DNA of 64,000 nucleotides. Source: Candidatus Enterousia intestinigallinarum (GTDB lineage: Bacteria > Pseudomonadota > Alphaproteobacteria > Rs-D84). The position numbers were made by a program, and so were the translations under genes. Where the stretch lies: assembly GCA_018716885.1 (NCBI GenBank), contig DVJI01000012.1:78050-142049 (forward strand), written 5' to 3'. Under the pieces are notes generated by a model that was given only the letters and a program-made list of their open reading frames with translations, ran no database searches and was not told the origin of the DNA. The first letter of the stretch is position 1; every line of letters begins with the position of its first letter. Positions 10,085 to 63,580 of this stretch are shown here, piece after piece.

Positions 10085-10303
10085 ATGCGCGAACAGACCG
10101 TACGCCGGCTGAATCCGGCAAATATAACCAGTGAAGTTTATATTGTTGCACCAACACAGATAGAATATATATCGCAAATTTTTGCGGACAATGTCGCCGA
10201 CACACTGAATTTGCGTACATTTGCACAAAAAATCCGTCAAATTGCCGAACAGTCGTTACGAACCGCATTGTCCGCCGCCCGTCATCAGGGCGAAAAACGG
10301 TGA
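10085..10303 (+). CDS. Small hypothetical protein (72 aa)
   Basis: ORF with a ribosome-binding site (ggggga) 5 nt before the ATG, between secA and the giant gene. No homology recognised. Confidence 0.3.
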   Translation: MREQTVRRLNPANITSEVYIVAPTQIEYISQIFADNVADTLNLRTFAQKIRQIAEQSLRTALSAARHQGEKR

Positions 10304-10362
10304 TAGTAACTAGTATTTACTATAACACCCAGAATTATTGAATCACGAGTATCGATTTACTA

Positions 10363-10390
10363 AAAAAACGGGGCATTTGCCCCGTTTTTG
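10363..10390. terminator. Bidirectional intrinsic terminator (aaaaacggggcatttgccccgttttt)
   Basis: Same acggggca..tgccccgt hairpin core as the terminators at 7313 and 14755. Confidence 0.65.
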
Positions 10391-13300
10391 TTATTCCATA
10401 CTGTCATCATATACAGAATAGGTTGTTCCACCAGAGTTCAACTTCAACGCACCTATACCACTGGCCCCCATATTTCCATAGAACGTTGTTCCATTGATAC
10501 TTACGTTCAGGGACGGGGTAGTTTTCCGTTCACTGCGCAGATAAATCTTTTCACCGTTGACGTTCAACACACGTCCACAGTCACCGACTTCATCAGCACC
10601 GGCACCGGAACCTATCGTGGTCAACCCGTCATCACACGCATTGCGAACACCTGCGCTGCCCTGGGATACGGTGGATGCCGCCGCCCAATATCCGGCACCA
10701 ACATCAGAACACGTTGTGTTATTTGCCGTTGCAATATATGAACCACCACCACAAGAAATCTTACAATCACTTGCCGTATCGTGGTTTGCGGCCGCGGTGC
10801 CACTGATTGTATAGTTGGTCAAACAGTTGCTGTACGAACTGATACTGCCCTGGGCGACACTGTGTGCACCGACGTACCAGTTACCAGCCGGTGTAGTACA
10901 ACTTGTTGCGTTTGCCGCGGTAATTCTGGTACCCGCCGCACAACTGATTTTACAATCCGTTGATGCATCGTGGTCCGTACGCGCTGTTGTATTTGGCGTT
11001 GAATAATTCGTCAGGCACGCTTTGACCGTTGTGGTCGGCGTTGTTGAGCCCGCCGTCACACTGTGTGACGCAGTGTACCAGCTGCCCGTTGGCGTTGTAC
11101 ACGCTGCATCTGCTGTTACCACACGGGTACCCGCCGCACAAGTAATACTGCAATCAGATTTTGCATCGTGATTCGACGCTGCGGTACCACTGGTTGAATA
11201 CCCCGACGGACACGCCGTACACGCCGACATTCCAGTTGATGCGGCATAAGTATTAGCAGCACACACCGAACAAGACGTTGCGGTACTGTCATCAGTCCCC
11301 TGGAACGTGCCAACCGCGCACGCCGGACAGGTTATGCCGCTGACATACCGTCCTGCTTTTGCAGTAACAGATTTCACGGTTTGCTGACAATCTTCACTAT
11401 TCGTTGAACACCCTGATTTAATTGTGCCATCTGCACTGCCTGTGCTGTTAGAATATGCCACGTATGAACAGGCCGGCAAAGTACAGGTGTTACACGTGCT
11501 GTCCGAACAGCCAGTTGGTGTTGCACAAGATATTTGTTCACCGGTCCACGCACGTGACTTGCTGTTACTGTAACAAGATGTAATAGCAGCAGCACCGGCA
11601 TCTGAATTCGGATAACCAGACGGGCAGGTGTTGCGTGTACTGGTTGAACCATAGCTCACGCTATGTGCCGCACGATAGTACCCGTCACCAACCGCCGTAC
11701 ACGCCGCCTCTGCGGTTGCAACGTACGTACCGCCCGCACAACTGGTTTTGCAGCCGCTTTCGGATGATGCCGCCGCACCGCTGCGATAGTTCGCCGGACA
11801 CTGGGTTCGTGTACTGGTCGAACCATAGTTCACAGTATGTGCCGCACGATAGTATCCGGTACCGACGGATGTACACGCCGCATTAGCCGTGGCAACATAT
11901 GTCCCACCAGAACAGGATATCTGACAAGATGACGCCGCGGTTTTTCCAGCTGTGGTATTGGCGGTATACCCAGACGGACAATTATTCTGCACACCACTGC
12001 TGCAATATGTCGCGCCAGTACACTGCGACTGACCAGTACAGTTGTTGCCACTGGTGTTGCAGCCCGTTGTATAATAACCACTGCCGACGGTGCTACACGC
12101 CGATGCGCCATCCGCACTGTACTTAGTACGTCCAGTACACGCACTGCACGAAGATGTTGATCCGTAATAAACCGTATGCGCCGCTTTATATGTACCCGCC
12201 TCACAGGTCGATACAGATGTCGCATTTGCCGTTGCAACGTATTTACCGCCGGAAACACTCATATAGCATTTAGATATACCACCTTCATTACCATCAGCAG
12301 AATTTGGATATGCCGACGGGCAGGCACTGCACGACGTTCCATTGTCATAGTACCCAGCATCTGCAGTTACCGCTGCCGGTGTTTTTGTACAATTAGACGG
12401 TGTGCACGTCGTATCGGTTGCACTTTGATAATCACGGTATGAACAAGTCCCCGGGGTACAACTGTTCCACGATGTAACACTGGCGCAGTTGGCCGGAACA
12501 CTGCCGTTTACCTGGTTACCGGTCTTCGTTTTTGTTACATAGCAGTACGCGTCGCTGATATTGCCGCCGTCGGATTTCGGATAACCAGATGGGCAGGCAC
12601 TGCAGCTTGTTCCGTTCACATAGAAGTTTTCCTTTGCTGTGACGGCCTTTGGTGTTTTGGTACAATTAGACGGCGTACAAGTACCATCAGTTGCACCATT
12701 ATAATCCTTATACTGACAGGTTCCTGGGGTACAACTGTTCCACGATGTAACGCTGGCGCAGTTGGTCGGAACACTGCCGTTCACCTGGGATCCGGTTTTT
12801 GTCCCATACTTATAACAATATGAACTGCTGATATTACCACCATCTGAATATGGGTACGAAGAACCACATTTTGCGGCACTACCACCACTCAAGTAATAGT
12901 TGTCATCAGCAGACGTACACGTTTGTGGTTTCGTACAATTAGTCGGTGTACAATCACTTACAATCGTACCACTGTATTGCTTGGTATACGTACAAGTCCC
13001 TGGGGTACACGTTCCCAACGTACGCGCCGCACACCCAGTTTGCATAGACGGCGTTGTTTGTGAACCGGTCTTTGTAAACGAACCAACGCAAGAATTCTGA
13101 TTGGCTGCACCAGCACCGTCACGATACCCGGATGGGCACTGTGCCTGGGCGCTGTTACTGGACTTGTAAAATCCATCTGAAACCGTTTTACACGATGTTT
13201 GGCCAACTGCATTTTGATATTGCAAAGAACCACTGCACGCACTGCGGCCGGACGTTCCACCGGGACAGGCATATCCCGCTTGGCACTGGGTACAGGTTGT

Positions 13301-14197
13301 ACCATTTACATACGCACCGGCCTTGGCAGATAATGCTGACGATACCGTCGTTGCACCCCACGCGGTCGCACTGGTCGCGTTTTGTTTTAACGTACCGGCG
13401 CTGCAATACGTACTGGCCGATGTTGCTGCGCGCGTTTGATTACATTGGGTATACGATGTCCATCCGGTGCCACTATTACGCGTCCACCCGGACGTCTGCG
13501 CCGGACAACTGTTCTGAACACCACTGCTGCAATATGTCGCACCCGTGCATTGTGATTGACCGGTACAGTTATTACCACTGCTGTTACACCCGGTTGTATA
13601 ATATCCACTGCTGACCGTTTTACACGACGATGCCCCGGCCGCACTGTACTTTGTACGTCCTGTGCATGCACTGCACGATGCGGATGCCTGGGTGCCACTG
13701 CCGGGCTTGTACGTACCGGCCGAACACGCCGACCATACTGCATATACCGTATCATTGGCGGTAAATGTCATAGATGTCGAACCAGACGTCGCAGTACTGG
13801 ATGTTGACCATCCCTTGAATACATATCCAGCACGATAAAACGTCGTTGTCGCACCAGATTGCAATGAACACGAAGCCCCCTTGTTACAAGTCTTGTTGGC
13901 CGGCTTTGTTCCAGACCCACCGTTCAAATTGTATGTAATCGTAACAGTCTGTTTAACCGGCGCAGATGTTCCCCCAGCACACGTATAATAAGAACCATAA
14001 TCCGAACATGGACGACATGCGTTCCCAGCCCTTGGGGTGCCATTATATACCGTGCTTGATGAAGATGTCGCCATATAATACCCAGATGCACAACTGGTAT
14101 ATTTCTTGTAACTGGGACAAGAATAGCCAGCAGCCAACGCATTGCCGGCAAAAATCAACATAAACAAACACGCTAAATAACGCAGAATTTTTGACAT
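10391..14197 (-). CDS. Very large (1268 aa) secreted Cys/Ser/Thr/Gly-rich repeat protein with many CxxC motifs (surface protein, uncharacterised)
   Basis: N-terminal signal peptide MSKILRYLACLFMLIFAGNALA. Several long internal repeat units, e.g. ...YGSTSSCSACTGRTKYSA...GYYTTGCNSSGNNCTGQSQCTGATYCSSGVQN... occurs twice, and CTPGTC...NGSVP.NCASVTSWNSCTPGTC recurs. No hydrophobic core. Confidence 0.8.
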   Translation of the reverse strand: MSKILRYLACLFMLIFAGNALAAGYSCPSYKKYTSCASGYYMATSSSSTVYNGTPRAGNACRPCSDYGSYYTCAGGTSAPVKQTVTITYNLNGGSGTKPANKTCNKGASCSLQSGATTTFYRAGYVFKGWSTSSTATSGSTSMTFTANDTVYAVWSACSAGTYKPGSGTQASASCSACTGRTKYSAAGASSCKTVSSGYYTTGCNSSGNNCTGQSQCTGATYCSSGVQNSCPAQTSGWTRNSGTGWTSYTQCNQTRAATSASTYCSAGTLKQNATSATAWGATTVSSALSAKAGAYVNGTTCTQCQAGYACPGGTSGRSACSGSLQYQNAVGQTSCKTVSDGFYKSSNSAQAQCPSGYRDGAGAANQNSCVGSFTKTGSQTTPSMQTGCAARTLGTCTPGTCTYTKQYSGTIVSDCTPTNCTKPQTCTSADDNYYLSGGSAAKCGSSYPYSDGGNISSSYCYKYGTKTGSQVNGSVPTNCASVTSWNSCTPGTCQYKDYNGATDGTCTPSNCTKTPKAVTAKENFYVNGTSCSACPSGYPKSDGGNISDAYCYVTKTKTGNQVNGSVPANCASVTSWNSCTPGTCSYRDYQSATDTTCTPSNCTKTPAAVTADAGYYDNGTSCSACPSAYPNSADGNEGGISKCYMSVSGGKYVATANATSVSTCEAGTYKAAHTVYYGSTSSCSACTGRTKYSADGASACSTVGSGYYTTGCNTSGNNCTGQSQCTGATYCSSGVQNNCPSGYTANTTAGKTAASSCQISCSGGTYVATANAACTSVGTGYYRAAHTVNYGSTSTRTQCPANYRSGAAASSESGCKTSCAGGTYVATAEAACTAVGDGYYRAAHSVSYGSTSTRNTCPSGYPNSDAGAAAITSCYSNSKSRAWTGEQISCATPTGCSDSTCNTCTLPACSYVAYSNSTGSADGTIKSGCSTNSEDCQQTVKSVTAKAGRYVSGITCPACAVGTFQGTDDSTATSCSVCAANTYAASTGMSACTACPSGYSTSGTAASNHDAKSDCSITCAAGTRVVTADAACTTPTGSWYTASHSVTAGSTTPTTTVKACLTNYSTPNTTARTDHDASTDCKISCAAGTRITAANATSCTTPAGNWYVGAHSVAQGSISSYSNCLTNYTISGTAAANHDTASDCKISCGGGSYIATANNTTCSDVGAGYWAAASTVSQGSAGVRNACDDGLTTIGSGAGADEVGDCGRVLNVNGEKIYLRSERKTTPSLNVSINGTTFYGNMGASGIGALKLNSGGTTYSVYDDSME

Positions 14198-14333
14198 AGA
14201 AACTTCCTACTTCTACTTCTTTTTCTCTTTTATGTATCATTTTATGAAAAATAGGGTATGCGTTGCAAGCAAAAAATCCGTTAAAAACTTTATTTTAATT
14301 GCAAACAGCGAAAAGCGTGATACAATTCTGCCC

Positions 14334-14665
14334 GCAGATGAGCAGAGCATAGCTGATTCCGGTTTTTCCGGAATTGGAGGAAAGTCCGGACTGCGTGGGA
14401 CAGCATACCGGCTAATGACCGGGCGGAGCAATCCGACGATTAGAGCAACAGTGACGAATCGATTAAAAATCGGGTGAAACGGGCAATCTCTATGCGCAGC
14501 AACCTCGAATAGGTCCCCGCTAAGCGTGTCCCAGGCGATGGGGACGGGTAGAGGGCTTGACATCTTGTGGTAACACATTATGCAGACTAATTATGCTCGC
14601 TACCCCGGGGTGGTTGGAAACGACTGGCCCGGGGCAGTACAGAATCCGGCTTATAGTTCATCTGC
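14334..14665 (+). ncRNA. rnpB: RNase P RNA (bacterial type A)
   Basis: Contains the conserved GGAAAGUCCGG block, a GGGUGAAA block and the 3' ACAGAAUCCGGCUUA block. A P1 helix forms between 5' GCAGATGA and 3' TCATCTGC. An intrinsic terminator follows. Confidence 0.8.
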
Positions 14666-14691
14666 AAAATCCGCCCTGTGGCGGATTTTTT
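14666..14691 (+). terminator. Intrinsic terminator of rnpB (aaaatccgccctgtggcggatttttt)
   Basis: Hairpin plus T-tract immediately after the P1 3' strand. Confidence 0.7.
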
Positions 14692-14754
14692 AGTTACCGG
14701 GTATTCGTTGCTCGTATCTCGTTATTCGTAACTAGTAACTAGTAACGAGCAACA

Positions 14755-14780
14755 AAAACGGGGCAAATGCCCCGTTTTTT
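14755..14780 (-). terminator. Intrinsic terminator after dnaK (aaaaacggggcaaatgccccgtttttt)
   Basis: Hairpin plus T-run overlapping the dnaK stop codon. Confidence 0.65.
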
Positions 14781-20675: not shown

Positions 20676-21947
20676 TTATTGACGTATCAAAGATTGAATT
20701 GTTTGCGGTACGGAAACTGCCTGTTGCAGGGTAAATCCAGATGACCGCAATACGAACGGTGAAGTTGTACTAACACCATTTTTTACGCAATCGGAATATG
20801 CCTCTGCCTCGGCAATCATCCAGCATTGGTTGTTCAACGGCGTTTCCTTTGATTGACCGGTACCATACTGCATTGTGGTCTTATCATATCCGGCCGCCGC
20901 AACACAGTAATTTGTTGACGGGGAATCTGCGTCAAATATATATCCAATATCACACTGAATACAAACACCACCGTCCGGTGACGCACCACCACGCAGATTT
21001 TCCGTACACGGTTGGCACGTTCTGTCCGCCAATGACGGGAAAGCATAACCCTTTTCACGACATCTGTATGTATAGCATCCCATATTGTCGTTAAATTCCA
21101 ACATCATTGTCGCTTCATCAAATCCATTGCTGGGCCAGTTTGAACACGTCTGGGTCAGGGCACACGCTGTTTCATCAATGGCAACGCAATCATTACCCGC
21201 CGCATTGGCAGTATAACCATTTTTGCACAGCAATGTCGCTTCGCCCGCGGGCCAACCATCAATACCACCGCGTTTACTTTTCCACCCTTCGCGACGTGCA
21301 CGAATAACAAAAGGTTGTGCATACGCCCCGTGTCCACTTGCCAGCCAGTCAGACACCACCAAAATCATATCGTGTTCCTGGCCCTTATGCACCCCGCAGC
21401 CATTATATTGATTCCAATGAAACATTGCCACGGCTGATTCAACCTGTGGATCACGCGCCATAGTTAAACTGTTAAAATCATCACGACGAAACGGTGTTGA
21501 ATCACATCCAGTCGGGGCGGAATCCTGGCAACCTTCACCACCGAATCCCGGTTTGCACAACCAATAACAGGTCTGCGCACCCTGACCAGATTCCGCATAC
21601 AATGTCCAGGCATTACCTTTTTTCTTTTTTTCGGCATACACCGTGGTTGGACAGAACCGTGCGCCATTTTCATTTACTTCGCGCGCAACCAGCAACAACA
21701 CCCCCATATCGTCGCCCAACACACATTGCCCCGGGGAATTTGCATCAATGCCATAATTTCCCTTACAGGTATCCTTGTACCGGCCGATTGTCGCATTCCC
21801 AAAATTAGAACTCTGACAGTGGCTCATAACCGGATTTTTCCAACTGCCCAACAGCGCATTTATATTATTTTCACCACCGGCAATCGCAACACACGGAACA
21901 ACTTGTGCAATAAATAATGATAAAAGTATGTTTCGTATATTTCTCAT
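20676..21947 (-). CDS. Secreted cysteine-rich protein (424 aa), uncharacterised
   Basis: Signal peptide MRNIRNILLSLFIAQVVPCVAIAG with a ribosome-binding site upstream. About 30 Cys. No recognisable domains. Confidence 0.6.
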   Translation of the reverse strand: MRNIRNILLSLFIAQVVPCVAIAGGENNINALLGSWKNPVMSHCQSSNFGNATIGRYKDTCKGNYGIDANSPGQCVLGDDMGVLLLVAREVNENGARFCPTTVYAEKKKKGNAWTLYAESGQGAQTCYWLCKPGFGGEGCQDSAPTGCDSTPFRRDDFNSLTMARDPQVESAVAMFHWNQYNGCGVHKGQEHDMILVVSDWLASGHGAYAQPFVIRARREGWKSKRGGIDGWPAGEATLLCKNGYTANAAGNDCVAIDETACALTQTCSNWPSNGFDEATMMLEFNDNMGCYTYRCREKGYAFPSLADRTCQPCTENLRGGASPDGGVCIQCDIGYIFDADSPSTNYCVAAAGYDKTTMQYGTGQSKETPLNNQCWMIAEAEAYSDCVKNGVSTTSPFVLRSSGFTLQQAVSVPQTIQSLIRQ

Positions 21948-21960
21948 TTTAATTACCTGT

Positions 21961-24477
21961 TTATTCCGCAACATAACATACGGAGTTTTCATAATACCCG
22001 CCCATCAGTTCTTCGCACTGTGCACGATACCATTCATCGGTAAATGTGCATTCGTCACGCGACAAATCATATGATGCAACCGGTGTTTCCAATCCGTCAT
22101 TATAATCCAGGCAACGCAACATTGTCGTGTTTTCAACACAGCGTCCCCAATCGGTTACTTCATTACCACCATACACCTGTCTATAGAACCCAGACAGCAA
22201 AGTTCCTTCGCCACTGACACGACTGTCAACAACGTTAGTAACACTGTCATCATTATCCATCCAGTACCCATCCAATTCTTCACAAGTTTCCATCAACTGG
22301 TAATCCAGTTCTTCCTGAATATCATCTATTGCGCGTTTTATCTGATCACTAACCTGTGCGATAAATTCATCACCGGAACTGGTCGGATCCGCACAATTTT
22401 GACTTGCAAAGTTCTGAATAGATTCTTCCAATTCATCCGGACTCATATTACGGCAGTTCCACGGATAGCCCATTTCTCCATCATCCGGGGTGCACAAATC
22501 CGCCAGATAATTATCAATCGCGGTTTCGCAGCCCTCGGTAATACGAACGGTATCAACCGTGTCAACAAACGCCAACAAAGCGGTCAGACCACACCGGTCT
22601 GCGGCGGCAGCACCAGTTAAACTGCTGCTGTTATTACCGCTGCCGGCCACTAATCTGCCATTACCATCAAATTCACAACCGTCAGTGTTTCCATACAATG
22701 ACGCACAGGCGATAACCTGATCCTGGCACATTGAACGTGCAGCATACGCACTGATTGCACCGGTATATTGCGATGTAGTATTGTCAAAATCCTGCAACGC
22801 GCCAGTTTGCGTATCATAACATTCGGCCATAGTGCTGACACAGGACATTTTGACTTCTTCTATTTTTTCATCCTGTGCCTGTGCAATTTCAATCAGGGCC
22901 TGGCGCTTAAATTCTTCCCATACAATATCAGATATATCACGACAGGTATCTAATGCGCTTTCTGCAAACATACGTTTGTCGTCCAAAAATGTATTAAATT
23001 CCGAATTTGCACTCAATACATCACCAGCGTTACTGGCATTTACCCCCGGCAGTAATATCATATTCGTCAATTCAAACAAGCGCGGTGAATAAATCGGCTC
23101 ACCCGTACTTTGGTTGATATATGCCCCGGTATAGTCCAAACAACGTTGATAATTCGGACCACAGGCCGTATCCGCCTGAATAGCGGAACGAACATTTGCG
23201 ATACATTCGTTCACGTCGGCTGAATTATGTGATTGATATTCTTCCAGACGTGCTTCACGCAGGTATTTTTCCGCCGTACGTACAGTTTGTTCCAATCCCT
23301 CTTTTTGAGAATTTATATTTTTCTCATACAGGTTGCAATCCTGTGTAATCATAATGCTGTACGCGCTGCGCGCCATTGTCAAAACGGCATTATTCTCGCA
23401 AGAATCTGCGATTAAATCCAGACATTGTTTGCTGGCCTCGTTATACAAATCCTGGCCGGTCAGGGTGGACAAATCAACCCCCGTTGACGTATCAAATATA
23501 GAACTGCCAGAATCGCCCCAAATATCACCCAAGTCAGATGTAAAATCAACCGTCAACAGCCCCAGCGAAGTCCCCGACGAACTGGATGACGAAGACGATG
23601 AACTGTTTCCAGACAACAAATCACTGATTTCCGACAACATATTTGCCGCGGCACTGGTGTCACGTTTGATTGCATTTTCACCCTCGGTCGCGGTGTACAT
23701 TGCGGTAACTTCTTCGGCCGTCAGATTGACCGCCGTCAGATTATTATCCTGGAACTGCGCCAACAGGTTTAATGCCTGGTCAATCGCGTTTTCCGTATCA
23801 CGAAATTCATCATATCGGGCACTGCACACGCATCTGCGGTATGTGTCATTTGCATTTGCACAAAACTGATCCATACAGGTTGCATACGCTTCACGACATT
23901 CTGCATAACCGCCCCCAATGGCAGAAATATCTGTAAAGACCGCTGTTGCACGCGCGGTTGATGCACGCGATGCCCCAACAACGGAATTAGTCGATGCCGC
24001 ACGCGCCGTACTGGCCGGATTATGCGTTGCGCCACGCACGACATTTGACGATGCCGCACGCGATGTGGTTGCACTGCGTGCCGCAGTTGCTGATGTCGGA
24101 ATCGTCTGACGAATTGTGCCGCTACGTCCAGTGACAACATTTGTTGCCGATGGCATAATATTTGCCGAACGCGCCACAGTCGTGCTGGGGCGTGATGTCG
24201 CACTGCGCGACACGGTTGTTGCCGCCGCACGTCCTGAAACAGTTGACGTCGTTGTCGGTGTTGTACCCGACGTTGCAGCGGAATTTACACGCACAACGCG
24301 ACTGCTGTTTGCACGCGATGTTGCACCAGTGGCCGCGTCCGATGTCGCAACCGTAACAGACGCCGTGGACGAGCCACGTGGATTTGGTGCCTGTTCAGCC
24401 AACGCCGGCCAGCACAGTGCCAACACCGACCAAAAAGCAAGTGAATATTTGCAAAAATCAGCAACGCGTTTAATCAA
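21961..24477 (-). CDS. Large secreted protein (838 aa) with a Thr/Ala/Arg/Ser-rich N-terminal low-complexity region and a conserved Cys-containing core; paralog of 60824..63580
   Basis: TTG start followed by signal peptide (…SLAFWSVLALCWPALA). The core aligns block by block with the 918-aa protein, e.g. C.EAY..CMDQFC...D.YRRC.CS.R, ATEGENA, GPNYQRCLDYTGAYINQSTGEPI. Confidence 0.65.
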   Translation of the reverse strand: MIKRVADFCKYSLAFWSVLALCWPALAEQAPNPRGSSTASVTVATSDAATGATSRANSSRVVRVNSAATSGTTPTTTSTVSGRAAATTVSRSATSRPSTTVARSANIMPSATNVVTGRSGTIRQTIPTSATAARSATTSRAASSNVVRGATHNPASTARAASTNSVVGASRASTARATAVFTDISAIGGGYAECREAYATCMDQFCANANDTYRRCVCSARYDEFRDTENAIDQALNLLAQFQDNNLTAVNLTAEEVTAMYTATEGENAIKRDTSAAANMLSEISDLLSGNSSSSSSSSSSGTSLGLLTVDFTSDLGDIWGDSGSSIFDTSTGVDLSTLTGQDLYNEASKQCLDLIADSCENNAVLTMARSAYSIMITQDCNLYEKNINSQKEGLEQTVRTAEKYLREARLEEYQSHNSADVNECIANVRSAIQADTACGPNYQRCLDYTGAYINQSTGEPIYSPRLFELTNMILLPGVNASNAGDVLSANSEFNTFLDDKRMFAESALDTCRDISDIVWEEFKRQALIEIAQAQDEKIEEVKMSCVSTMAECYDTQTGALQDFDNTTSQYTGAISAYAARSMCQDQVIACASLYGNTDGCEFDGNGRLVAGSGNNSSSLTGAAAADRCGLTALLAFVDTVDTVRITEGCETAIDNYLADLCTPDDGEMGYPWNCRNMSPDELEESIQNFASQNCADPTSSGDEFIAQVSDQIKRAIDDIQEELDYQLMETCEELDGYWMDNDDSVTNVVDSRVSGEGTLLSGFYRQVYGGNEVTDWGRCVENTTMLRCLDYNDGLETPVASYDLSRDECTFTDEWYRAQCEELMGGYYENSVCYVAE

Positions 24478-49661: not shown

Positions 49662-52052
49662 TTACAGCAACGGCGGGAAACAATCGCCACCGGCTTCTGG
49701 GCAACAGTTGAATCCCATATCACCCATATCGGTATAAACTTCACCAGTGCAGCACCCGTTCACGTCCGGCGCCGTACCGTCTGGACAGGTCGGCAAATCT
49801 TCAACCGTATCCGACCATACCACGGACGTTACAGATTGCGGAACATATCCGTCATCGGACGCCACCGATGCTTGGGATGAATTTAATCCGGATTGATTTT
49901 CCACCGGCGCGCTGACAATCGACGGACCGACTGTATCAACGGCCTGCATATTATTTTGACGCAATGTTTCGGTATCGTAATTTTCATCTGCGACAAACAT
50001 ATTTTCATTTTGTGAAACGTTATATGCCGGCTTGCTGGCCAAAATTTCTTCTTCAGTTGGAATTTCCGGCTTTGGTTCAGTGCTTGAAACTGGTGTGGTT
50101 ACGGCGACAGATTCAACAACCACATCAGCTGCTGGCACTTGTTCAGCAACCGTTTCTGGTGTATCAACAGGTTCCGGTTCTGGTTCTGTCACTGGTTCTG
50201 GTTCCGGAATTTCCACGGGAGCCGGTTCTTCCACAACAGGTTCCGGTTCGGGTTCTTCCACAGGAACGGGCACTGTTATTTGCGTTTCAACAGTTTCAAC
50301 TGCGGCCGGCGTTTCCAATTCCGGTATAAACGGACTGTCCGCATCAGTTAAATCATCTGCCTGTGCGGTTTCCGTTGTGGTTGGCACTGTTGCGGTTAAA
50401 TCAGGTGCATTTTCACTGGTGTTCTTTTGATACAACCACAATGTAAATATAGACAACCCAATCAACAACACCAACATTATATAATAAACTAATGTAGGTT
50501 TACGCGGTGCTGGATTACTTGGCGCCACATTACCAGTAATCGGCGACACAGGACGCGGCGCGGACGCAGCAGCCGAAACAGTTGACGCCGGCGGGACAGG
50601 GCGCGCCCCTGCATCTACCGCTGGCGACGCCGTGGCGGGCGCCTGGGGTTCTGGATTTTGTGCCGCTGGCAGCGGTTCAGATTCTGCATCTGGTACAACT
50701 GGCGAAATATTCGGCACCAGTTCAGAATCTAATTGTTGGGCAGAATTATCCGCGGCCGTCGGCATATTCACGGACGTAATTGTATCCAAAACCGGTGTTG
50801 TTGCTTTTTCATCTGATACACGCGGTGCTTCTTCACCAGTTACAGGTCTGACATTTATTGGCGCGTTGTCCGCACGCTTATCAGACGGTGGTGTGAACGA
50901 CAACGGTTTGTCATCAATAATATTTTCATACACTTCCGGATTGTCGGTAACCGGACTTGTTTCATCAGACACCGGACTGGAAACACCAAACTCAATCGGC
51001 TTAAACGCGATTTCTTCGTCCAATATTTCCGGGTCTTTATCAAACAGTGGTTTTACCGCATCATTATTTGTTTCATCGGCCATTATTTCCGCCTTTGGTT
51101 CTTCATTTATATTTTCTGTAAATTCCACGCGTTCTTCTTCATCAACAGGCATACGTGCAACCACATCATCATCAGACGCCACGGCCGCAACACTGGTATG
51201 TGCAGGCGCACCAACCGCAGTTGATTCAACAGGCGCAGAATCACCGGCCACGGATTCTTTGTCATCCGTATCAAAATCCACATCCGTATCATAAGACACA
51301 TTGTATGTTGTTGTAACCGATGGAATAGCATCGTGTGCCTGCGGGGCATCGACATCACGCACAACAGCAACCGGTGCACGCGCCAAAATTTCACGCGCAA
51401 TTTGTGCATCTTCGTCCGCAACAATCAGGCGCCGCTGTGCATTATCCAGACGTTTTTTTGCACGACGCAGTTTTTCATTTGTTGCATCAATCTGCGCATC
51501 CGTACGCAATATTTTAGACGCCGACTTTTTTGTCGGTTCACGTCCGACCTGTTTTTTCTGTTGCGACAACTTGGCCCGCAACTGGCGTAATTTCGTTTGC
51601 AGTTCGGCAATGCTTTCACGTGTTCTGACGATTGTTTCGCGTGCAGTTTCGGCATTTGCATCTGCAACGGCCAAACGTTCCGTCGCTGCGCGCCGGACGG
51701 AATCTTCACGAAAAGCAGTCAGTGCCGTCAGCGCCGCCGTCAAATCATCGCCATTTTCATATGCGTTGATTAAATTGTCGTATTCAGCCAAGCCGCTGTA
51801 TTCAATATCTAACTTTTGATATTTATTATTTTTCTTTGGGCGCACAGTTTCCAAATCAACGTTATAATCATTGGCCAAAATGTCATCCCATTTGCGGTCA
51901 CCAACCGGATTTATCACCAAAAGAGCATTTGGCTTGCGATCGTCCAGCGTGCTGTCCAAAACAAACACCAACTTATCATCGGCATCATAATACGCACGCA
52001 ACACGTTTCCGGCGATATTGTATTCCCTGAACGTCAAAACAGATTTATCCAT
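49662..52052 (-). CDS. Single-transmembrane protein (796 aa): cytoplasmic coiled-coil N-domain, one transmembrane helix, periplasmic acidic Pro/Glu-rich repeats and a Cys-rich C-terminal knot
   Basis: Ribosome-binding site (GAGAGGGAAAA) then ATG. Heptad-like region LRQLRAKLSQQKK...LRRAKKRLDNAQRRL. Transmembrane helix LVYYIMLVLLIGLSIFTLWLY. Repeat run EPEPEPVVEEPAPVEIPEPEPVTEPEPEPV. C-terminus CPDGTAPDVNGCCTGEVYTDMGDMGFNCCPEAGGDCF. Confidence 0.6.
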   Translation of the reverse strand: MDKSVLTFREYNIAGNVLRAYYDADDKLVFVLDSTLDDRKPNALLVINPVGDRKWDDILANDYNVDLETVRPKKNNKYQKLDIEYSGLAEYDNLINAYENGDDLTAALTALTAFREDSVRRAATERLAVADANAETARETIVRTRESIAELQTKLRQLRAKLSQQKKQVGREPTKKSASKILRTDAQIDATNEKLRRAKKRLDNAQRRLIVADEDAQIAREILARAPVAVVRDVDAPQAHDAIPSVTTTYNVSYDTDVDFDTDDKESVAGDSAPVESTAVGAPAHTSVAAVASDDDVVARMPVDEEERVEFTENINEEPKAEIMADETNNDAVKPLFDKDPEILDEEIAFKPIEFGVSSPVSDETSPVTDNPEVYENIIDDKPLSFTPPSDKRADNAPINVRPVTGEEAPRVSDEKATTPVLDTITSVNMPTAADNSAQQLDSELVPNISPVVPDAESEPLPAAQNPEPQAPATASPAVDAGARPVPPASTVSAAASAPRPVSPITGNVAPSNPAPRKPTLVYYIMLVLLIGLSIFTLWLYQKNTSENAPDLTATVPTTTETAQADDLTDADSPFIPELETPAAVETVETQITVPVPVEEPEPEPVVEEPAPVEIPEPEPVTEPEPEPVDTPETVAEQVPAADVVVESVAVTTPVSSTEPKPEIPTEEEILASKPAYNVSQNENMFVADENYDTETLRQNNMQAVDTVGPSIVSAPVENQSGLNSSQASVASDDGYVPQSVTSVVWSDTVEDLPTCPDGTAPDVNGCCTGEVYTDMGDMGFNCCPEAGGDCFPPLL

Positions 52053-55251: not shown

Positions 55252-57036
55252 ATGCAAATTCGTATAATTGCATCTTTGGTAATTGCACTTTGCGCCACAC
55301 GTGTGGCGCTTTGTGCAGATGCACAAAACATCCCCGCGTCTGCATCAACAAACACAACTTCAATTATTGGCGACGGAACATCGGATTTTGGAACCGATTT
55401 TATACCGGCGTCTGAACTGCTGGCGCGCACCCCGGACGAAACACAGTGCGCAACGGCCGCGTTCGCGAATGCGCTGCGTGAAAACGCCGGTGCTGTTTCT
55501 GAAACAGATTCCGAAACGGATATACAAAAGTGGATATACCAGACCTTTAATAACGCCGATGTGTTACGTGCTGTATTGTCCTGTCCGGAAATTGCGTCAC
55601 GTGCAGACGACGAAACAATTAAATTTCTGCCGATAACATATACTTTTCCAGCGGGTCGTGAAATTGTTGTAAATTACGAAACACAGCCCAAAATATTAAA
55701 ACAGCGTGTAACACTGTCAGAAAAGCGTTCATTGCCGTCATCCGATCCAAACCCACGGGTCGGCGCACCTGATGACGATGCAATCTGGACAAATACCGAT
55801 CCCGCCTGGTACGGGATTATGGTGGTACAATCCGGAACACTGGATAACTTTGTCGGTCCAAACAAGAATAACACGATATCGCTAAAATATATAAATGATA
55901 ATATCGATACGTTATTTCCCCGGGGCAATCAGTGCACTGGTAAATCGGCACTGACAAATGATAACACTATGATAAATCGTGCAATGCGCGAAACGGTTGC
56001 ACTGGACGATGACACAAATGACTACTATGTTGCGGGTGACGCCAACCTACAATGGATTTCATATTTGGAAATCGGATTGGACGTTGCGATAACCGTTGCA
56101 ACAATGGGCGGTGGCACGGTTGTTCTGGGTGCGACCAAGGCCGCCCGCGCATCACGAACATTAAAGAATTTAAGTACCACATTGCGCACATTGCGCCAAA
56201 CGGATTCTGTGCGTGACTATGTACGTATCAGTCAACAGTATGCACGTGCCGCCGAAGAACTGCGCAATATTGACCGTGTGGCGGACGCGGCTGGTTACGC
56301 CCGCAAATCGGCCGAGGTCGAAAACTATGCCCGCACAATGCGCAGTTTGGAAAGTACCGACGACAATGTGCGCCAATATCGCCAGGCATCAGAAACATTT
56401 TCATCATTAAATCAATATCGACGTACACTGCGCGGATGGCGGATTCCGCAACGTGGCAATATTATTGCACGTACCTGGCGTGCGGTGCGCGCGGCAAATA
56501 CCGGCGCACAACAACTGCGCAGCGCGGCCCGTGTCGCGCGCAGCAGTACGCTGTCCGGACGTGTTCGCGACTGGCTGTTTCAATCAACATTGGCAAATGT
56601 CGGGGCACTGGCGCGTCTGGAACGTGCCGGCGGATTTATATACGGCGCGCTGAAGTTTGTTGGCGGTATGTATGACTGGACGGAAACAAGCACTGGTGAT
56701 TTCACCAGTGGTATAGAATTTAAGCCGTTGACATTATTGTCCGCCGACGATTTACAGGGTCAAGAAAATGTTATAAACCACGGAATGTGGTTGATGTGGG
56801 CGGGCGACGCATACACTGCCGCCGATGACGACGCCGCGTTTTTACAGGCAATGGATTTTGCAAACAAATTCCACTTTAACCTGGACACAATTCAGGCGGA
56901 CGAAAACAATCACGCGTGCGACGTTGATATTTATGTTGTGCGCCCGATTATACGAAACCCCGGATCGGATAATCCAGAATTATACTATCTGGTAATGAAC
57001 GATGAACCGTGGACGACACACAACACGGACGAATAA
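55252..57036 (+). CDS. Large secreted protein (594 aa) with short Arg/Tyr-containing internal repeats, uncharacterised
   Basis: Signal peptide MQIRIIASLVIALCATRVALCA. Repeats of about 25 aa of the form ..VRDYVRISQQYARAAEELRNID / ..AGYARKSAEVENYARTMRSLESTD / DNVRQYRQASETFSSLNQYRR. Confidence 0.5.
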   Translation: MQIRIIASLVIALCATRVALCADAQNIPASASTNTTSIIGDGTSDFGTDFIPASELLARTPDETQCATAAFANALRENAGAVSETDSETDIQKWIYQTFNNADVLRAVLSCPEIASRADDETIKFLPITYTFPAGREIVVNYETQPKILKQRVTLSEKRSLPSSDPNPRVGAPDDDAIWTNTDPAWYGIMVVQSGTLDNFVGPNKNNTISLKYINDNIDTLFPRGNQCTGKSALTNDNTMINRAMRETVALDDDTNDYYVAGDANLQWISYLEIGLDVAITVATMGGGTVVLGATKAARASRTLKNLSTTLRTLRQTDSVRDYVRISQQYARAAEELRNIDRVADAAGYARKSAEVENYARTMRSLESTDDNVRQYRQASETFSSLNQYRRTLRGWRIPQRGNIIARTWRAVRAANTGAQQLRSAARVARSSTLSGRVRDWLFQSTLANVGALARLERAGGFIYGALKFVGGMYDWTETSTGDFTSGIEFKPLTLLSADDLQGQENVINHGMWLMWAGDAYTAADDDAAFLQAMDFANKFHFNLDTIQADENNHACDVDIYVVRPIIRNPGSDNPELYYLVMNDEPWTTHNTDE

Positions 57037-60823: not shown

Positions 60824-63580
60824 ATGAAGAAAATTCTGCATTTTATCGGTATTTTCGCCGTGTGCATTGGCGTCGCCAATGCGGCTGTACGTGATGAAAA
60901 TGCGACGAATCGACAATCTGCAACAACATCTGCATCTCAATCAACAATATCACGCACCGCATCGACCAAGGCCGCCGCCGCACGCAACGTAACCGCGCGC
61001 ACCGCCACGTCACAACCGCTGACATCGCGCACGACACAACAGGGCGCAACAATATCACGCACTGATTCCACAACTGGGCGCAGCGCAACCGCACGTGCGA
61101 CCCAGGCCGTCACCCCAACCACAACGGCGCGCAGTGGCGCGACCGTATCACGCAGTGCGACGGCCGTACCAGCATCGACACGCGGCACAACAACGGCACG
61201 CGGCACAACAACGGCACGCAGTGGTGTGACTGTATCACGTGCCGCGATTGACACTGTTTCCGACGTTGTCGCTGACACGCGCACTGGCGCTGAATACGAG
61301 CAATGTAAAACCGCATATTTCAACTGTATGGATCAATTTTGCCAGTTAAAAAACGATGATTATCGCCGTTGTTCGTGCAGCAACCGCGTATTTGACCTGG
61401 CTGAAACACGCAGCATTATGCAAGACGCCAGTGACCAACTGACCGTATTCACGGAAAACCTGGACGTTGTCGGTATGACCGCGGCCCAAGCGACCGCGAT
61501 GAAAACCGCGACCGAGGGTGAAAATGCCCTGACATCTGACACTTCGGCATCCAAGCAGTTATTACAAGCAATTATGAATTCTATCCGTGGTGACGACGCA
61601 ACTGTTGGCGGAAAATATTCCGACCTGAACAGTATAACTTTGTCATTTGACACGGTGAACGCATTTGGTACCGCTGACGCCGGCCAGATAATTGCGACAT
61701 ATAACGGCCTGAACCTATATAACGCGGTATATCCCCAATGTCGCCAGGCAGTACGTGCCGACTGTACCGACGCACAGCTGCAACGCGCAATAACTGCATA
61801 TCTGATGGCTGTTGAACAAGATTGTAACACTGTTCAATCAGCGCTGGAAAATCAACAGAAACAAATGAAATCCGCCGTCCGCGAAAGCAGTGCTATGCTG
61901 GATTTGGCCCGTGTAGAAAATCGCCAGAATCATAATTCCAGTGATATGGCAACCTGCCTGACCGAAGTTGAAAATGCTATTTTAAGTGAAGAGGTCTGTG
62001 GTGCCGGATATCACAAATGTTTGGACAACGGCGAATTTATCGACGTATCAACCGGGGCGCCAATCGCCGGGGTGGAAAATTTCTATGAACTGGGCAACTT
62101 GTTGAAATTTGCGGATGGGGTTGACGCGGCCGACCAAAAACTGTCCAAGGTTACGTCCAATCGTTCATTTGTGAACAACTTTGAAAATCGTGTAAAAAAA
62201 TTTGCCGAACCTGCACTGGACAAATGTACAGAAATCGCAGATGATGTCTGGGCCGACTATTTGGACAAGGCAATGTTGGACATATACTATGCCCAACAAT
62301 CCAAAGTGAACGAAATTAAACAGGGATGTTTTGATTTTGTGTCGGCCTGTTATATGAACGGCGATACCGCACTGACGGCGGCAATGGCCGAACTGACCGG
62401 CGACGACACGGTTGTATTGCAACCGGACAAGGTTACATTATCCACAGAAATGTGCCGCGATTACATCAATTCGTGCAATATGATGTTCTATGACCAGACC
62501 GACGGTCAAAACATAATTACTGATTATATAAACAACCGCCAGGAAACAGATACTCTTACAGCGTGTCGCGCGGTTGTAAAACAATGCTTTGATAATTTTG
62601 GCGGAACAAATTACGAAAACTTCTATTATCCGTACAGCGGACTGTTCAAAACTGGCGAAGCACTAAAATGGTTCACTCTGTACGAATATGACGAAAACGG
62701 TACTATCAACACAGCCGAACCAGTATCAGAATGTGCAAAGCAGTTGATGGATATTTCATCGTGCAGTTCACCAGATATGATGGTGGCGGCATTTGGTGGA
62801 TTTGATGTCATAACCGCATCCAAGGGCATACACAGCAACGAAACAGTTTATTACTTTGATCCCGATGGTGATTACAAGGAAGACGGAACCGATGGCAAGC
62901 ATAGACGATATGGCCTGTTAGATGACGAAGTAACAGATGGCGTAACGGACAAAAATGGTACTGAAAATACATCTCAACGCATATTGGCGCACCATACGCC
63001 ACGTCCAACGGGTGTTGCGACAGAAATATACAATCAAATTGTCGATACACTGACAACGCAGTGTATGAACGTCCAGGGACGTTTCATAGAATTACAGTTT
63101 ATAAAAACAAATTTATACAACGAAGCCGCCCTGTGCAATGCACAATTTGGTGCATCCATTGAATACGGCGGTTCTGCGACCCCGGGCCAAGTGTCGTTGT
63201 ACCCGAACTTGGTTGAATATTATAAAATCGGTGATAATGAAAATATGTGCCCGCGCGACTATGACCTTAATGTAGATACGCAATCGTGGGGGGCGTGCCT
63301 GTGCTGGGAAAACGGGGGACGACGCAGCAAATACGGGAAAAGCCCGAAATGTGTCGCCGGCATACCAACCGATACCGCACGAAATGATGCCAACTGCACA
63401 GCAGCAGATCTTACATCACCTGTTACTGGAACACCCGGAATTGATAAATGGTGCACAATGCCACTGACGTCTGGGAACCAGGTTTGCCCGATTGGTCTGA
63501 ACGGGGGCAAAGAAGAAAATGAAATGTGCGTGTACGACGGTGAAGAACTGAATAATCTGCCCGAAGGGTTGGGAATCTGA
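60824..63580 (+). CDS. Large secreted protein (918 aa) with a Thr/Ala/Arg/Ser-rich N-terminal low-complexity region and a conserved Cys-containing core; paralog of 21961..24477
   Basis: Signal peptide MKKILHFIGIFAVCIGVANA. N-terminal TTARSGATVSRSATAVPASTRGTTTARGTTTARSG tracts. The core aligns with the 838-aa protein. Confidence 0.65.
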   Translation: MKKILHFIGIFAVCIGVANAAVRDENATNRQSATTSASQSTISRTASTKAAAARNVTARTATSQPLTSRTTQQGATISRTDSTTGRSATARATQAVTPTTTARSGATVSRSATAVPASTRGTTTARGTTTARSGVTVSRAAIDTVSDVVADTRTGAEYEQCKTAYFNCMDQFCQLKNDDYRRCSCSNRVFDLAETRSIMQDASDQLTVFTENLDVVGMTAAQATAMKTATEGENALTSDTSASKQLLQAIMNSIRGDDATVGGKYSDLNSITLSFDTVNAFGTADAGQIIATYNGLNLYNAVYPQCRQAVRADCTDAQLQRAITAYLMAVEQDCNTVQSALENQQKQMKSAVRESSAMLDLARVENRQNHNSSDMATCLTEVENAILSEEVCGAGYHKCLDNGEFIDVSTGAPIAGVENFYELGNLLKFADGVDAADQKLSKVTSNRSFVNNFENRVKKFAEPALDKCTEIADDVWADYLDKAMLDIYYAQQSKVNEIKQGCFDFVSACYMNGDTALTAAMAELTGDDTVVLQPDKVTLSTEMCRDYINSCNMMFYDQTDGQNIITDYINNRQETDTLTACRAVVKQCFDNFGGTNYENFYYPYSGLFKTGEALKWFTLYEYDENGTINTAEPVSECAKQLMDISSCSSPDMMVAAFGGFDVITASKGIHSNETVYYFDPDGDYKEDGTDGKHRRYGLLDDEVTDGVTDKNGTENTSQRILAHHTPRPTGVATEIYNQIVDTLTTQCMNVQGRFIELQFIKTNLYNEAALCNAQFGASIEYGGSATPGQVSLYPNLVEYYKIGDNENMCPRDYDLNVDTQSWGACLCWENGGRRSKYGKSPKCVAGIPTDTARNDANCTAADLTSPVTGTPGIDKWCTMPLTSGNQVCPIGLNGGKEENEMCVYDGEELNNLPEGLGI

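Follow-up and report, generated by a model that had tools for sequence, protein, structure and literature searches.

A strain-variable, cysteine-rich modular protein with a conserved C-terminal domain, encoded upstream of secA in Candidatus Enterousia, as a candidate surface protein

Within a 64,000-nt stretch of the genome of Candidatus Enterousia intestinigallinarum, an alphaproteobacterium of the chicken gut (contig DVJI01000012.1 of assembly GCA_018716885.1, positions 78,050 to 142,049 of the forward strand; hereafter the window), an open reading frame (ORF) of 1268 aa plus stop encodes a modular, cysteine-rich protein with a Sec-type signal peptide and a C-terminal domain that recurs across the order Rs-D84. 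The gene sits at a fixed position between housekeeping genes and is an allelic mosaic, built from cassettes that are gained, lost, reordered and imported between lineages. Judging from sequence and its pattern of conservation, we think that the product is probably a surface-displayed protein anchored at its C-terminal end, with a variable distal array contacting the surroundings.

Protein architecture and internal repeats

A preliminary reading of the DNA that ran no database searches (the sequence-only reading) had placed here a secreted repeat protein of 1268 aa from a host-associated alphaproteobacterium. Its ORF limits are borne out exactly (10391–14197, minus strand, ATG start), as is the kind of organism, which is Ca. 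E. intestinigallinarum of the order Rs-D84; the product is identical to GenBank HIS71007.1 (UniRef100_A0A9D1JW81). The clean signal peptide it described agrees with our own by-eye reading of the N-terminus (MSKILR, a hydrophobic stretch, then ALA followed by A), which has the basic, hydrophobic and A-x-A layout of a Sec-type signal; residues 1–22 (MSKILRYLACLFMLIFAGNALA, cut before A, then AGYSCP) span 14132–14197 on the minus strand. Whole-protein composition is Thr 15.0, Ser 14.8, Ala 12.6, Gly 11.3, Cys 7.4, Tyr 6.5 and Asn 5.8%, and the mature chain holds 9.6% LIVMFW and 9.7% D+E+K+R, in line with the near-absent hydrophobic core and the S/T/G/A/Y/N richness noted at the outset. The cysteine content was misjudged: there are 94 cysteines (7.4%), not roughly 12%, and with 10 CxxC motifs the description "CxxC-studded" was overstated. 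All the motifs quoted are present, namely CSACPSGY at residue 532 (with CSACPSAY at 623), CTPGTC at 397, 489 and 580, and GYYTTGCN..NNCTG, as GYYTTGCN..GNNCTG, at 198 and 707. Cysteines of the mature chain number 93, an odd count, and the chain is enriched in N-x-S/T sequons (30 observed versus 20.9 ± 3.8 in shuffles), none of which lies in the bacterial D/E-x-N-x-S/T context.

Fragment-versus-self BLASTP resolves the mature protein into a series of modules, all on the minus strand. Module N (residues 23–82; 13952–14131) opens with the family-wide AGY[ST]CP[ST]YKKYTSC motif and, past it, belongs in the window allele to a diverged allele class. It is followed by one Flg_new / List_Bact_rpt domain (83–157; 13727–13951; PF09479, TIGR02543), by the first copy of unit A (158–252, 10 Cys; 13442–13726) and by module X, a set of divergent Cys-rich modules (253–369; 13091–13441). 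Three copies of unit B, each of about 91 aa and 8 Cys (370–460, 461–551 and 552–643; 12269–13090), precede module c0 (644–683) and the second copy of unit A (684–758; together 11924–12268), then two 58-aa copies of unit C (759–874; 11576–11923) and module b, a partial B-like unit (875–956; 11330–11575). The remainder comprises module E, which gives the best Ephrin_rec_like (GCC2_GCC3) match (957–1015; 11153–11329), a "stalk" of three unit D copies of 62–66 aa with 4 Cys each (1016–1206; 10580–11152), and the C-terminal domain (1207–1268, or 1190–1268 with its linker GLTTIGSGAGADE..DC; 10394–10630), modelled as three beta-hairpins. The two A copies are 74–83% identical as protein, and B2 and B3 about 80%.

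Long direct repeats in the DNA were located close to where the sequence-only reading had put them, at 74–84% identity and so not nearly identical, as it had described them. One pair, 11975–12151 versus 13502–13678 (177 nt, 84% identical), corresponds to the A copies; a second, 12287–12529 versus 12560–12802 (243 nt, 74%, spacing 273 nt), lies in the B array, whose third copy is visible at the protein level. Two further sets had been overlooked, which left the first inventory incomplete: 11621–11740 versus 11795–11914 (77%), equivalent to unit C, and three 50-nt copies at 10739, 10928 and 11126, equivalent to unit D. The longest exact in-register runs are of 19–26 nt. Tandem Repeats Finder returned no array at its thresholds because the copies are too diverged.

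Allelic mosaicism at a fixed locus

Four relatives fetched with their flanks all show the order dnaK, rnpB, gene, 72-aa ORF, secA, and these flanks are 96.3–99% identical to the window, which corresponds to within-species divergence. We mapped the modules of the window allele onto the 61 protein clusters with the same signal peptide and C-terminus and found 34 lengths (800–1421 aa) and 45 module orders, so that the length variation anticipated from the internal repeats is realized at this one locus. Unit C occurs in 1 to 4 copies per allele and module X also differs in copy number, while Flg_new is found in some alleles, swapped for a different Cys module in others and absent from many. Module b is the first module found in every allele of the species (67–100% identical). 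Modules E, D1–D3 and the tail are 85–100% identical in all 61 clusters, the D stalk reaching 92–100%. At the other end, the promoter region and signal-peptide codons are 92–100% identical among conspecific alleles, and divergence sets in abruptly at about codon 24, the predicted signal-peptidase site.

Synonymous divergence (dS) and the ratio of nonsynonymous to synonymous rates (dN/dS), estimated by the Nei–Gojobori method in four comparisons, follow the same partition. The flanking dnaK and secA show dS of 0.035–0.094 with dN/dS of 0–0.03, and codons 1–82 of the gene a dS of 1.4–1.5 with dN/dS of about 0.1. The D units give dS of 0.08–0.14 (dN/dS 0.06–0.21) and the C-terminal domain dS of 0.02–0.10, with dN of 0 in three of four comparisons and dN/dS of 0.60 in the fourth. 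Diversifying selection by point mutation is rejected, dN/dS being 0.05–0.2.

Exchange between lineages and loss of single units can both be followed in individual alleles. The N + Flg_new cassette of the window allele is 93% identical to P0020, a protein of another lineage with a different signal peptide and tail variant, versus only about 80% to conspecific alleles, and cassettes are therefore imported between lineages. Protein P0133 matches the window protein at 100% identity over 1177 residues; what it lacks is precisely residues 479–569, one 91-aa B unit, with the junction in the sole 26-nt exact match between B2 and B3. This allele comes from one 4.7-kb contig; the deletion is probably real, because 26 nt falls short of what a mis-join would need at the usual final k-mers of an assembly and is close to the minimum for homologous recombination. 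In other species, too, members of a 90%-identity cluster can differ in length, by steps of 63 and 114 aa. On these alignments, the diversity comes from recombination, by which units are gained, lost, reordered and imported, and the modules that it acts on are each under purifying selection; set beside phase and antigenic variation systems, including diversity-generating retroelements, the variation is modular and not base-specific.

A repetitive, eukaryote-like gene in a family many of whose loci lie at contig ends could be a collapsed or chimeric assembly, or eukaryotic contamination binned into a metagenome-assembled genome (MAG). Such an artefact, a concern of the sequence-only reading as far as collapse goes, is effectively excluded: the identical ORF occurs on 13 contigs of separate assemblies, of up to 262 kb, always between dnaK/rnpB and secA; the repeat copies, with exact runs of ≤26 nt, are too diverged to collapse; a bacterial Shine–Dalgarno sequence and terminator are present; and the locus upstream of secA is kept in >40 loci.

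Relationship of the modules to known cysteine-rich domains

The GCC2/GCC3 resemblance noticed beforehand proved right. PF07699 (Ephrin_rec_like, the current name of GCC2_GCC3) scores 23.1 bits on the whole protein, exactly at its gathering threshold of 23.1, and 24.4 bits in four stretches on residues 643–1205, the best match lying in module E (972–1010, 23.1–24.4 bits); the same annotation is precomputed on several close homologues. PF09479 (Flg_new) reaches 31.6 bits (cut-off 27) and TIGR02543 26.4 (cut-off 20.95), both for a single copy at residues 86–157, and TIGR02543 is all that an NCBIfam scan of the protein returns. The initial impression that no bacterial family could be named was thus half true: this one domain passes both curated cut-offs, and confident matches to known families concern domain types and not the entire protein. 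At E ≤ 1 the full protein matched no other Pfam family, so no LRR or GW module was detected; TNFR_c6 (PF00020) and NCD3G (PF07562) gave nothing either on the full protein (E ≤ 1) or on sub-regions (E ≤ 10), and no EGF model matched significantly. The furin-like and protist variant-specific surface protein (VSP) resemblances also proposed found no support, as neither PF00757 nor the Giardia VSP model PF03302 matched the full protein at E ≤ 1.

An exhaustive HMMER search of representatives with the repeat body (residues 640–1206) as query matched 541 of them. The second-best match, P0159 (E = 0, 49% identity, 33 stretches), itself scores 292.5 bits with PF07699 (10 stretches), 148.6 with NCD3G and 97 with TNFR_ELAPOR1_6th, which makes the repeats divergent bacterial members of the Ephrin_rec_like / NCD3G / TNFR-like superfamily. 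Structure prediction agrees with this assignment: the AlphaFold model has a predicted local distance difference test score (pLDDT) mostly >90 over the unit D region, where the fold matches of TNFR / NCD3G / Eph cysteine-rich domain (CRD) type lie; fold searches with the model return only this class, and it superposes on solved CRDs. The disulfide-dependent fold of this class is extracellular in every solved homologue. Neither a fold search of the viral BFVD database nor tblastn against 50,697 phage records gave anything significant. Among the repeat-body matches is also a 5,432-aa protein of the stramenopile Triparma strigata (P0264, GMH76975.1; E 5.9e-40, 31 stretches, 36% identity).

Such a composition could also suggest the main rival to our reading, a protective surface coat with no specific ligand: a dense, protease-resistant, disulfide-rich shield like the Giardia VSPs, in which variation would serve escape from antigen or phage-receptor recognition. 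The Thr/Ser/Gly/Ala/Cys-rich make-up with few charges and the variable N-terminus on a conserved C-terminus parallel VSP coats, purifying selection on modules combined with cassette reshuffling fits escape by rearrangement, and the gene takes up about 0.4% of a genome of about 0.9 Mb (size from PMC12306168). We nonetheless regard a coat as unlikely, given that the VSP model has no match, that Flg_new and receptor-type CRDs are binding modules in known proteins, and that second, sometimes tandem paralogs with the same tail domain look more like a toolbox of binders than a single coat.

The C-terminal domain and its family in Rs-D84

The last 65–80 residues are kept in every relative, even where signal peptides and bodies differ, with the motif GLTTIGSGAGADE..DCGRVLNV-NG-EKIYLRS.KKTTPSLNV.I-NG-.TFYGNM....G.L...S-GG-TTYSVYDDSM. 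The window protein ends YSVYDDSME, as a soluble beta domain with an acidic tail and no hydrophobic helix; in the larger AlphaFold model the domain consists of three beta-hairpins with six short strands (pLDDT 74–90). Profile searches found no match for it in Pfam at E ≤ 10, in NCBIfam or among PDB sequences, and no fold-search match covers it.

An end of this kind would also suit a soluble binding protein or effector released from the cell, for example a decoy capturing host or microbial ligands in the manner of viral TNFR homologues: a signal peptide is present, no membrane or wall anchor is recognisable, and the fold class includes the soluble decoy receptors DcR3 and poxvirus Crm. We hold release to be very improbable.

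We defined an Rs-D84 family whose members combine a signal peptide with a repeat body rich in Cys and carry, at the C-terminus or close to it, the motif GLTTIG.GAGADE..DCGR..(hairpin)YLRS.KKT..L.V..(hairpin)FYGNM..(hairpin)Y.V.DDS; the window protein has all of these. A scan of GTDB species representatives found 120 loci encoding the domain, nearly all from uncultured gut Alphaproteobacteria, Ca. Enterousia or "Rickettsiales UMGS" MAGs of human, mouse, ruminant and poultry samples; the few Bacteroidales-labelled contigs among them are probably mis-binned. Family proteins span about 450 to >2,400 aa with 2–9% Cys, most opening with a signal peptide and then AGY[ST]CP[ST]YKK, and many genomes hold at least two copies. 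In >40 loci the gene lies directly upstream of secA (SecA 82–96% identical), so the locus is conserved across the order. Among 143 further repeat-body representatives, 89 match a hidden Markov model of the domain, mostly ≤3 residues from the C-terminus; a homology search with the 72-aa domain alone yielded only 11 short fragments or truncated gene calls and revealed no other architectures.

Several variants of the architecture were seen. A second, shorter paralog type of about 652 aa (9.0–9.3% Cys) with the same C-terminal domain occurs in loci L057, L058, L060, L072 and L074, three of the five beginning ...VTCDPDQYLDGEF, and family genes stand in tandem pairs in L055, L059 and L063. The domain is non-terminal in a minority of members, with 100–480 more residues after it, often ending ...TNLY.SAG... 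(loci L037, L039, L040, L042, L043, L046, L056, L069 and L084; proteins P0160, P0178, P0181, P0193, P0216, P0238, P0270, P0274 and P0281).

A subset of repeat-body relatives lacks the C-terminal domain, opens with the prepilin-type N_methyl motif GFTL[IV]EI and carries Flg_new (P0159, P0240, P0246, P0247, P0260, P0288 and P0289, up to 3,792 aa); P0240 (MBO5375854.1) comes from a Bacilli MAG. These relatives suggest that repeat cassettes have been transferred between phyla in the gut. That the same passenger rides on lineage-appropriate end modules is our main argument for regarding the C-terminal domain as a putative anchoring or sorting module. Literature searches on Enterousia, on Rs-D84 and on GCC2_GCC3 with bacteria found no description of the family, of its C-terminal domain or of the polymorphism.

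Proposed function

We propose that a disulfide-stabilised, elongated modular protein would be exported by the Sec pathway, cross the outer membrane and most likely be displayed on the Ca. Enterousia cell surface, anchored by its conserved C-terminal part of about 310 aa (E, D1–D3 and the tail domain). The N-terminal part of about 850 aa, composed of TNFR / Ephrin_rec_like-type Cys-rich cassettes and Flg_new, would point outward as the ligand-binding and antigen-exposed portion, and as an adhesin or contact protein it would touch host, partner or particle surfaces. Host immunoglobulin A (IgA), phage or partner specificity may exert frequency-dependent pressure on this array. In-register unequal exchange among the 58–95-aa intragenic repeats would add or remove units, and whole diverged cassettes would come in from other strains and lineages by homologous recombination.

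Several observations weigh against this proposal. That the C-terminus is proximal and the N-terminus distal is an assumption drawn solely from the pattern of conservation. No outer-membrane translocation route was identified, neither a type IX secretion system (T9SS) nor other dedicated machinery having been looked for. Known sorting and anchor signals (the T9SS C-terminal domain (CTD), autotransporter/YadA beta-barrel, PEP-CTERM and LPXTG) gave no model match, and the protein has no terminal transmembrane segment or adequate barrel. Modelled alone from a 21-sequence alignment, the C-terminal domain reached a pLDDT of 43.6, which is unusable and leaves its fold uncertain. As to variation, dN/dS is <1 everywhere, without a codon-level signature of positive selection; the 136-bp upstream spacer holds no long simple-sequence repeat, homopolymer or inverted repeat that could act as a phase-variation device; and tblastn found no silent cassette or paralogous copy within the 64-kb window. 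The same allele, moreover, was recovered unchanged in up to 13 assemblies, and we therefore speak of population-level polymorphism and not of demonstrated within-clone antigenic variation or rapid switching.

Part of this evidence would be expected of a periplasmic or otherwise envelope-internal structural protein that varies mostly through neutral instability of its repeats. The periplasm is where the disulfide-rich proteins of diderms fold, a diderm envelope would agree with the TolQ/ExbB-family gene in the window, and there is no known outer-membrane export route. Neutral instability leaves unexplained both how a cassette of ancient divergence, with dN/dS of about 0.1, came to be imported and why 45 architectures stand beside a rigidly conserved stalk, and a CRD rod of about 1,250 aa would, by a rough estimate, be far longer than the periplasm is wide. 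An internal location is accordingly very improbable to us, and surface display of a variable array is the reading we retain.

Enterousia has a genome of <1 Mb (about 0.9 Mb), without respiration, a complete glycolytic pathway or standard transporters, and a dependence on partner cells is presumed (PMC12306168). In this context we tentatively speculate on a wider system, with fairly low confidence: an Rs-D84 surface-display system in which a new C-terminal sorting or anchor domain carries eukaryote-type Cys-rich cassettes, exchanged horizontally with gut Bacilli and ultimately with eukaryotes, and shuffled within and between species. It might be the counterpart of protist VSP coats and might attach these genome-reduced, transporter-poor cells to a eukaryotic or bacterial partner. 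The literature checked for a physical association of Rs-D84 with protists held no evidence of one.

Transcription signals and gene neighbourhood

The transcription and translation signals of the gene were read from the minus strand. A promoter-like site (TTGCAA, 18-nt spacer, TAAAAT; 14239–14268), found by consensus scan alone with 9 of 12 matches, sits in the 136-bp spacer shared with the divergent rnpB. A Shine–Dalgarno sequence, AGGAAG, lies 5 nt 5′ of the ATG (14203–14208), and an intrinsic terminator, AAAAACGGGGCAAATGCCCCGTTTTTTT, with a GC hairpin and T-run, starts 2 nt past the stop codon (10362–10389). A nearly identical terminator hairpin, AAAAACGGGGCA[A/T]ATGCCCCGTTTTT, follows both this gene (10362–10389) and dnaK (14754–14779). 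The bacterial class A RNase P RNA occupies 14334–14669 on the plus strand (194 bits), and the spacer between rnpB and the gene is about 100% identical in conspecific genomes despite the sharp divergence of the gene body.

Between the gene and secA, and convergent with the gene, lies a 72-aa ORF (MREQTVRRLNPANITSEVYIVAPTQIEY...; 10085–10303, plus strand). It is called in all conspecific loci, is found with 42–67% identity at the same position in many other species, and has no Pfam match; its constant linkage to genes with the C-terminal domain may or may not be meaningful.

Around the gene lie bacterial housekeeping genes, among them those for the alphaproteobacterial regulator GcrA and for a protein of the TolQ/ExbB family. 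The window also contains five large ORFs with no Pfam family at E ≤ 1e-3, at 20676–21992 (minus, 438 aa), 21961–24477 (minus, 838 aa), 55252–57036 (plus, 594 aa), 60824–63580 (plus, 918 aa) and 49662–52052 (minus, 796 aa). The first four have signal-peptide-like N-termini, and three of these show raised Cys (3.4–5.3%) and stretches rich in Ser, Thr and Ala. These ORFs may encode additional envelope or secreted proteins specific to the lineage, which could be partners of the protein described here. At about 34583–34728 gene orientation flips, long ORFs being essentially all on the minus strand to the left and on the plus strand to the right, and GC skew, until there negative, becomes about zero or positive, as one would expect of a replication origin.

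Comparison with known systems

The closest known class is that of Ephrin_rec_like / NCD3G / TNFR-like proteins, such as the Eph receptor CRD, the CaSR CRD, ELAPOR1, the TNFR superfamily and the Chlamydomonas mastigoneme protein Mst1. The window protein differs from these in being bacterial, in that most of its units carry 4 Cys per 58–66 aa and escape the Pfam model, and in adding Flg_new and a new C-terminal domain; its gene lies at a housekeeping locus and its cassettes are strain-specific.

With Giardia VSPs it shares a Cys/Thr/Ser/Gly-rich extracellular make-up with CxxC motifs, a layout in which the N-terminal body varies and the C-terminal end is conserved, and a role presumed to lie in surface variation. 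VSPs have a C-terminal transmembrane helix and a CRGKA tail, and a clone switches expression among a large gene family. The window protein, in contrast, has no PF03302 match, 7.4% Cys with 10 CxxC, and neither the transmembrane helix nor the CRGKA tail, and its gene varies by allelic mosaicism at one locus across strains.

One domain (residues 83–157) is shared with InlB B-repeat or Listeria-Bacteroides repeat (Flg_new) proteins. It makes up about 6% of the window protein and is missing from many conspecific alleles, so the NCBI name "InlB B-repeat-containing protein" says little.

Size-variable surface proteins (streptococcal alpha C/Rib, staphylococcal SasG/Aap and mycoplasma Vlp) likewise change direct-repeat number by in-register recombination while conserving the anchoring end. 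Their repeats are near-identical, Cys-free and in tandem, whereas the window gene interleaves several diverged repeat types (74–84%), reordered and exchanged between lineages, on a disulfide-based fold. The T9SS CTD (TIGR04183 / PF18962) offers an analogy only: it too is a small (about 65–80 aa), beta-rich extreme C-terminus on diverse secreted proteins of one lineage, some of them with Flg_new, but the tail domain described here matches no NCBIfam or Pfam sorting model and its lineage is alphaproteobacterial.

Significance

The sequence is public, and both size-variable repeat surface proteins and Ephrin_rec_like modules are already known. What is new is the combination of these two kinds in a diderm, genome-reduced gut lineage, together with a C-terminal domain that defines the lineage and has no annotation, and the degree to which cassettes form mosaics at a fixed housekeeping locus. 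New, too, is the finding of this repeat body on a prepilin-type chassis in Bacilli and, with significant similarity, in a stramenopile protein. The database name hides the modules, the tail domain and the polymorphism alike. The gene provides a clean natural example of cassette shuffling among diverged (74–84%) repeats and of eukaryote-type Cys-rich domains on different bacterial anchors in different phyla, and its C-terminal domain is a candidate for a new diderm sorting signal. In practical terms, the conserved stalk and C-terminal domain would offer a species-wide epitope for antibodies or for sorting coupled to fluorescence in situ hybridization, and the variable region a strain-typing marker.

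Enterousia and the order Rs-D84 are uncultured and widespread in human, rodent, ruminant and poultry guts, with genomes of <1 Mb and a presumed dependence on a partner. No other element seen in this otherwise near-clonal neighbourhood is as polymorphic as the locus described here, its position is conserved across the order, and its modules are receptor and ligand-binding domains in eukaryotes. Its product is thus the best candidate for the means by which these partner-dependent bacteria touch their surroundings.

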